Origin: Escherichia coli
GTDB lineage: Bacteria; Pseudomonadota; Gammaproteobacteria; Enterobacterales; Enterobacteriaceae
NCBI RefSeq assembly: GCF_003334815.1
Contig: NZ_QOWO01000014.1
Direction: 5' to 3' (one strand)
Length of the DNA: 64,000 bases
The notes beneath the pieces are model-generated. The model was not told the DNA's origin. It was given only the letters and a program-made list of their open reading frames with translations, and searched no databases. The position numbers were made by a program, and so were the translations under genes. Shown here one piece after another: positions 13,292 through 14,569 of this stretch (the first letter of the stretch is position 1; every line of letters starts with the position of its first letter).

Positions 13292-14569
13292 ATGCAACAC
13301 AACTCATATCGCCGTTGGATAACCCTCGCGATAATTAGTTTTAGCGGCGGCGTTAGTTTCGACCTGGCTTATTTACGTTATATTTATCAAATTCCCATGG
13401 CGAAATTTATGGGATTCAGCAATACCGAGATAGGTTTAATAATGAGTACCTTTGGTATTGCGGCCATTATTCTTTATGCCCCCAGCGGCGTTATTGCCGA
13501 TAAATTTTCACACCGCAAAATGATTACTTCCGCGATGATCATTACCGGATTACTGGGTCTGTTAATGGCAACGTATCCACCGCTGTGGGTAATGCTCTGT
13601 ATTCAGATCGCCTTTGCGATAACGACGATTTTAATGCTGTGGTCGGTGTCGATTAAAGCTGCATCGTTGCTTGGCGATCATAGCGAGCAAGGGAAAATTA
13701 TGGGCTGGATGGAAGGGCTGCGCGGCGTCGGTGTAATGTCGCTGGCGGTGTTTACCATGTGGGTCTTTTCTCGCTTTGCACCGGATGACAGCACCAGCCT
13801 GAAAACGGTCATTATCATCTATAGTGTGGTTTACATCTTGTTGGGGATTCTGTGCTGGTTTTTTGTTAGCGATAACAACAACCTGCGCAGTGCCAATAAC
13901 TAAGAAAAACAGTCATTCCAGCTTAGCGACATCCTGGCCGTTTTGCGTATCAGCACCACCTGGTATTGCAGCATGGTGATTTTTGGCGTCTTCACCATCT
14001 ACGCCATTCTGAGTTACTCCACCAACTATCTGACCGAAATGTATGGCATGTCGCTGGTGGCGGCGAGCTACATGGGGATTGTGATCAACAAAATATTCCG
14101 CGCGCTGTGCGGCCCACTTGGCGGCATAATCACCACCTACAGCAAAGTGAAATCCCCTACCCGCGTGATCCAAATCCTTTCCGTACTCGGCCTGCTGACG
14201 TTAACTGCCCTGCTCGTCACGAACTCTAACCCGCAATCGGTCGCGATGGGGATTGGCCTGATTTTACTGCTGGGATTCACCTGTTACGCCTCACGCGGGC
14301 TGTACTGGGCCTGCCCTGGCGAAGCGAGAACACCGTCTTACATTATGGGCACCACGGTAGGTATTTGTTCGGTGATTGGATTCCTGCCGGATGTCTTCGT
14401 TTACCCAATTATCGGCCACTGGCAAGACACCCTGCCCGCTGCAGAAGCCTACCGCAATATGTGGCTGATGGGCATGGCGGCGCTTGGCATGGTGATTGTC
14501 TTTACCTTTTTGCTGTTCCAAAAAATTCGTACTGCTGATAGCGCCCCCGCAATGGCTAGCAGCAAGTAA
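13292..14569 (+). pseudogene. yqcE: MFS transporter gene interrupted by an in-frame TAA (N-terminal 203 aa fragment plus C-terminal fragment)
   Basis: ORFs 13292..13903 and 13943..14569 are in the same frame, separated only by TAA at 13901-13903 and 13 sense codons (...SANN*EKQSFQLSDILAVL...); 203+1+13+208 = 425 codons, the size I recall for intact K-12 YqcE. Confidence 0.8.

Follow-up and report, generated by a model that had tools for sequence, protein, structure and literature searches.

A single nonsense substitution makes yqcE a lineage-specific pseudogene in a natural Escherichia coli clone

The MFS transporter gene yqcE is interrupted by an in-frame ochre codon in the E. coli DNA analysed here (the window, a stretch of 64,000 nucleotides), and it is an ordinary lineage-specific pseudogene of a poorly characterised sugar-type transporter gene. 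We hold with high confidence that the stop is a genuine, recent and lineage-specific nonsense mutation, with presumed loss of the transporter, no production of its C-terminal half and possible polarity on the downstream gene ygcE. The event would have been a spontaneous G to T transversion, turning yqcE codon 204 from GAA (Glu) into TAA in a natural clone of phylogroup A type. Translation would then end in the central cytoplasmic loop, and the released fragment of 203 residues, limited to transmembrane segments 1 to 6, should be unable to form the two-lobed transport pathway of an MFS protein, so that the transporter would be lost. The C-terminal half, which has no ribosome-binding site, would probably never be made, and the 666 untranslated nucleotides with their C-rich, G-poor stretch may allow Rho-dependent termination to reduce ygcE transcription.

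Structure of the interrupted gene

The gene opens with an ATG at 13292 and ends with a terminal TAA at 14567-14569 (Table 1). The initial annotation had described two same-frame ORFs of 203 and 208 codons separated by a single TAA and 13 sense codons, and translation bears this out, with the second ORF starting at a TTG. Counting the final stop, the whole frame has 426 codons and matches K-12 YqcE (425 aa, NP_417255.1), the length that had been given for the intact protein. The spacing of 26 nt between yqcE and the start of ygcE was also given correctly.

Alignment to E. coli reference genomes was proposed as the check on the interrupting codon, and against K-12 MG1655 (NC_000913.3) it returned GAA at that place. 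The two genes are identical at 1277 of 1278 nt (99.9%, full length), and their sole difference is a T at window position 13901 against a G at 2901201, by which codon 204 changes from GAA (Glu204) to TAA. In K-12 this codon encodes glutamate, whereas here the frame closes after 203 residues.

Orthology to the K-12 gene (b2775, annotated as a putative MFS transport protein) follows from near-identical sequence, conserved position and flanks that are colinear over 60 kb, and the locus order ygcW - yqcE - ygcE - CRISPR array - queE is common to both strains. Among the 54 K-12 genes mapped onto the window, yqcE is the only one interrupted by an internal stop or a frameshift. It shows the features expected of a nonsense pseudogene, namely an internal stop, a frame that is full-length in close relatives and a downstream frame that is still recognisable. 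Gene callers start the C-terminal ORF at the ATG at 13973, giving a product of 198 aa. The locus should be recorded as a yqcE pseudogene in this lineage, and two MFS genes should not be annotated.

Table 1. Coordinates of yqcE, its parts and the downstream gene in the window
Feature	Position	Strand	Description	Basis
yqcE (b2775 orthologue)	13292..14569	+	MFS transporter pseudogene through one nonsense substitution	K-12 identity, neighbours, Pfam MFS_1
N-terminal ORF	13292..13903	+	203 codons plus premature stop; hydrophobic segments 1-6	Product deposited as CAM9207272.1
Premature ochre codon	13901..13903	+	TAA (K-12 GAA); next base G, context TAAG	K-12 alignment
Codons after the stop	13904..13942	+	13 sense codons for what is left of the central cytoplasmic loop; no longer translated	ORF translation, hydropathy
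C-terminal ORF	13943..14569	+	208 codons from TTG 13943; hydrophobic segments 7-12; probably untranslated	ORFs, hydropathy
Candidate Rho loading site	14124..14227	+	C-rich, G-poor stretch (C 36-38%, G 17%, C/G >2)	Composition heuristic only
ygcE	14596..16074	+	FGGY-family sugar kinase, intact; AGGAG 7 nt upstream; G181S relative to K-12	ORF, K-12 alignment

Protein family and topology

Intact K-12 YqcE matches the Pfam family MFS_1 (PF07690) over residues 22-362 (E 3.7e-25), a match which spans the break. The NCBIfam matches to MFS subfamilies were all below threshold (TIGR00893, 63.8 bits where the cut-off is 395), so membership of the MFS superfamily is clear while YqcE cannot be given a curated subfamily or a substrate. 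A PDB sequence search with YqcE gave no match, and the topology is therefore a hydropathy estimate.

A Kyte-Doolittle scan of this kind yields 12 hydrophobic segments in YqcE, and the longest loop (192-221) lies between segments 6 (173-191) and 7 (222-240). Residue 204 falls inside it, which agrees with the earlier proposal that the stop sits at the boundary of the two six-helix halves. Motif A of MFS proteins, with the consensus GxxxD[RK]xGR[RK], is located between TM2 and TM3. Residues 66-75 of YqcE (GVIADKFSHR) fit this motif at the G, D, K and last R, with S and H in place of the internal G and R.

Authenticity and distribution of the premature stop

A sequencing error was among the explanations first offered for the stop. 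If the isolate truly carried GAA and the T were a base-calling or consensus artefact, a T found in none of 5,016 complete genomes would be easily understood, as singletons are where errors surface. The same base is present, however, in an NCBI assembly (GCA_965212685.1), whose contig CBDBYT010000011.1 is 100% identical over 20.6 kb to window positions 3292-23903 with the TAA included; the window very probably corresponds to this contig from its position 45 on. It is also present in Logan contigs assembled directly from reads; a 9.3-kb contig from run ERR271227, identical in five samples, matches positions 7546-16801 at 100% with the TAA included. Other private differences of the window recur in both sources, where the SNPs 10582 T, 15136 A and 16519 C accompany the TAA. 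The change is moreover a substitution in non-repetitive sequence and no homopolymer indel, and no other mapped gene in the 64 kb is damaged. We therefore consider an error very unlikely. The NCBI assembly and the Logan contigs are likely to be independent support, though overlapping read sets or a single repeatedly sequenced clone are possible. The exact 203-aa product is found in the public protein collection as well.

Eight further Logan contigs (L008-L015) were considered as carriers of the TAA and rejected. They are wild-type or indeterminate at this site and break off at codon 203; L008, L011 and L012, which extend beyond it, do so with G or GA. Because an exact look-up with a partial product selects contigs ending at codon 203, all eight were dropped.

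The gene itself is widespread: of the 5,426 complete genomes of E. coli, 5,079 contain it, and in 5,057 the match covers 80% or more of its length. The best yqcE matches among these genomes are all one mismatch off. A 61-mer centred on the stop had no exact match in the 5,016 complete genomes that hold the segment. A search of the complete E. coli genomes by megablast with a 55-mer, in which the SNP occupies position 28 so that each 28-nt seed must span it, gave no match whatever. Among the metagenome contigs of JGI, 56 contain the wild-type 31-mer used as control and 0 contain the mutant one.

The TAA allele is thus confined to one small natural clone, for which it is usable as a clone-specific marker. 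These results support the strain-specific nonsense mutation listed among the options of the initial annotation, since K-12 and all the complete genomes have a sense codon at this place. Related strains sharing the TAA, with yqcE annotated as two genes, would have spoken against it; the reference and the complete genomes all carry the sense codon instead.

Fate of the two halves

Truncated YqcE would keep only its N-terminal lobe, and from this we infer that the transporter is lost. In-frame start codons are available 39 and 69 nt past the stop, and no Shine-Dalgarno-like sequence was found in the 20 nt before the TTG at 13943, the ATG at 13973 or the GTG at 13976. With nothing of this kind ahead of the restart codons, production of the C-terminal half is improbable. 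A start at the ATG at 13973 would also clip part of hydrophobic segment 7.

Low-level reinitiation at one of these codons could in principle yield a C-terminal six-helix half that joins the N-terminal half of 203 residues in the membrane to make a functioning transporter. If true, split YqcE would be nature's parallel to the lactose permease that was split by engineering. It is in the central loop that yqcE is broken, and there, according to the description of Bibi and Kaback (1990) in PMC6605686, LacY tolerates expression as two fragments and remains functional. The likeness extends to the position of the cut, as that account also concerns an MFS protein divided in the loop between helices 6 and 7. 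In the LacY experiments, however, both fragments had their own expression signals, whereas the C-terminal half of yqcE has no ribosome-binding site.

Several further observations make such a working split transporter highly improbable, more so than a sequencing error. The candidate restart codons all have the deficiencies described above, with no Shine-Dalgarno-like sequence before any of them and part of segment 7 removed by the ATG at 13973, so that the C-terminal half does not combine a start with a ribosome-binding site of its own, as a functional split MFS protein would. The allele is limited to one small clone, yqcE is in one piece in 5,057 complete genomes, and the other natural lesions of the gene (frameshifts and IS insertions) point to plain decay. 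A nonsense mutation that ends production of the transporter remains the preferred reading of the locus.

Transcription unit and possible polarity on ygcE

The pair yqcE-ygcE is listed as a single CRP-activated transcription unit (PMC8085971). In agreement with this, a consensus promoter scan found no promoter-like site on the plus strand downstream of 13071 within the stretch scanned, which takes in yqcE and the spacer. The premature stop leaves 666 nt before ygcE untranslated, and by a composition heuristic this RNA is long, C-rich and G-poor, as would be expected for polarity. Since the two genes are listed as one transcription unit and a C-rich, G-poor stretch lies in the untranslated RNA, Rho-dependent polarity that lowers ygcE transcription is plausible; ygcE keeps its own Shine-Dalgarno sequence. 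If polarity held, the lineage would be without most of the kinase of the pathway concerned, in addition to the transporter.

A long, near-perfect inverted repeat of up to 19 pairs (13005-13046), followed by a T-run, lies on the minus strand in the ygcW-yqcE intergenic region just downstream of ygcW. Most likely it serves as the terminator of ygcW, and it is terminator-like in both orientations.

All three changes relative to K-12 between 12188 and 16074 alter a protein (ygcW G74D, yqcE E204* and ygcE G181S). This could reflect relaxed selection on the cluster or chance. The ygcW change (position 12753) is common to the window and to strain ECCTRSRTH03.

A CRISPR array of type I-E style (16713-17107; seven repeats, CGGTTTATCCCCGCTGGCGCGGGGAACAC, and six spacers) separates ygcE from queE and is colinear with that of K-12; one SNP relative to K-12 is located upstream of the array at 16519. 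As cas3 is not beside cysH in this strain, the array appears to be an orphan.

Strain background

The backbone is that of a natural E. coli strain of phylogroup A type, non-K-12 and without sign of engineering. Its closest complete genome is the swine isolate ECCTRSRTH03, against which the window shows 16 SNPs and one indel across its 64 kb. Relative to MG1655 there are approximately 80 differences, 68 of them in cysHIJ and 14 in the other 60 kb; the latter are scattered and mostly transitions, and several are common to ECCTRSRTH03. Comparison of the window with MG1655 and ECCTRSRTH03 revealed no cassette, scar or recoding pattern. Private variation in the window is about as frequent as in ECCTRSRTH03 itself, so neither a mutator nor mutagenesis is needed to account for it.

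Two laboratory origins were considered and rejected. A recoded or engineered K-12 does not fit, as 68 of the approximately 80 differences belong to a divergent natural cysHIJ allele and the other 14 are of natural type. E. coli B, or a mutator line of the long-term evolution experiment, does not fit either; in REL606, fucA carries an IS1 and another island takes the place of fucP, and the fuc region of the window is K-12-like.

An engineered change had also been suggested for the stop. In E. coli, termination at TAA with a following G is efficient. That the ochre codon was deliberately introduced, or is translated by an ochre suppressor tRNA of this strain, draws on the clean single-base change and nothing more in the data, and it is the least credible of the alternatives, as the window has no scar, cassette or recoding, its flanks are colinear with natural isolates, its other differences are scattered ordinary polymorphisms, the TAA contigs stem from several sequencing runs, and the sole tRNA gene in the scanned stretch 59500-60500 is an initiator-type tRNA-Met. 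The preferred reading is therefore a natural mutation in a natural strain.

Positions 1-75 are non-K-12; in ECCTRSRTH03 they align at the site of an annotated IS150 transposase gene next to cysH, a place taken by sokX and cas3 in K-12. The adjacent genes cysH-cysI-cysJ (186-3797) form an allele that is approximately 2% divergent, with 68 differences from MG1655. The left end of the window (1-3797) looks like a recombination boundary adjoining a lost cas locus.

The initiator-type tRNA-Met gene (60086-60162) is present in one copy against three in tandem in K-12 (metZ, metW and metV), a difference of 220 bp, and ECCTRSRTH03 likewise has one initiator tRNA-Met gene. Two single-base deletions relative to MG1655 are both intergenic, one at 1056 in the cysH-cysI spacer and one at 60036 in the spacer between mltA and tRNA-Met; the deletion at 60036 is also absent from ECCTRSRTH03. 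Missense changes relative to both K-12 and ECCTRSRTH03 are ygcE G181S (15136), relA M113T (26014) and argA A75T (61943).

Recurrent loss of yqcE

A pan-genome study places yqcE among the near-core, non-universal genes (PMC12595684). The 198-aa C-terminal ORF is called only where yqcE is broken or cut, and it is indexed in 283 blocks of the public protein collection, of which ten places (L016-L025) were examined. The lesions in these assemblies comprise single-base deletions at positions 572 and 618 of the gene, one inserted base at 618, a stop at codon 224, an internal duplication, and insertions of IS1 and of an IS4-family element. The nonsense change at codon 224 gives a 223-aa fragment, which has also been deposited from Shigella dysenteriae, and frameshift alleles give a 228-aa product. 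A record of BW25113 has an IS1 inside yqcE.

These other E. coli and Shigella pseudogenes resemble the allele described here in that they are interrupted at or upstream of the region of the central loop and TM7, usually leaving the same 198-aa ORF. They differ from it in that their lesions are distinct and independent, and the ochre codon at E204 was seen in none of those examined. With the TAA allele, the independent inactivations of yqcE, a gene repeatedly lost in E. coli and Shigella, increase by one.

Taken together, the examined sequences suggest a dispensable gene that is often lost, with the proviso that some of the homopolymer indels may be assembly errors. Repeated loss fits the view of the ygc/yqcE-ygcE cluster as a cryptic, dispensable catabolic island. 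Given a cryptic catabolic cluster and the independent inactivation of yqcE in other E. coli and Shigella lineages, its loss here is probably neutral or nearly so.

The recurrent 1-bp indels (at 572 and approximately 618) fall in two short homopolymer runs and occur in unrelated assemblies, which may mark either mutational hot spots or errors of long-read assembly. In one of the examined assemblies (L016), ygcU and ygcE are split too.
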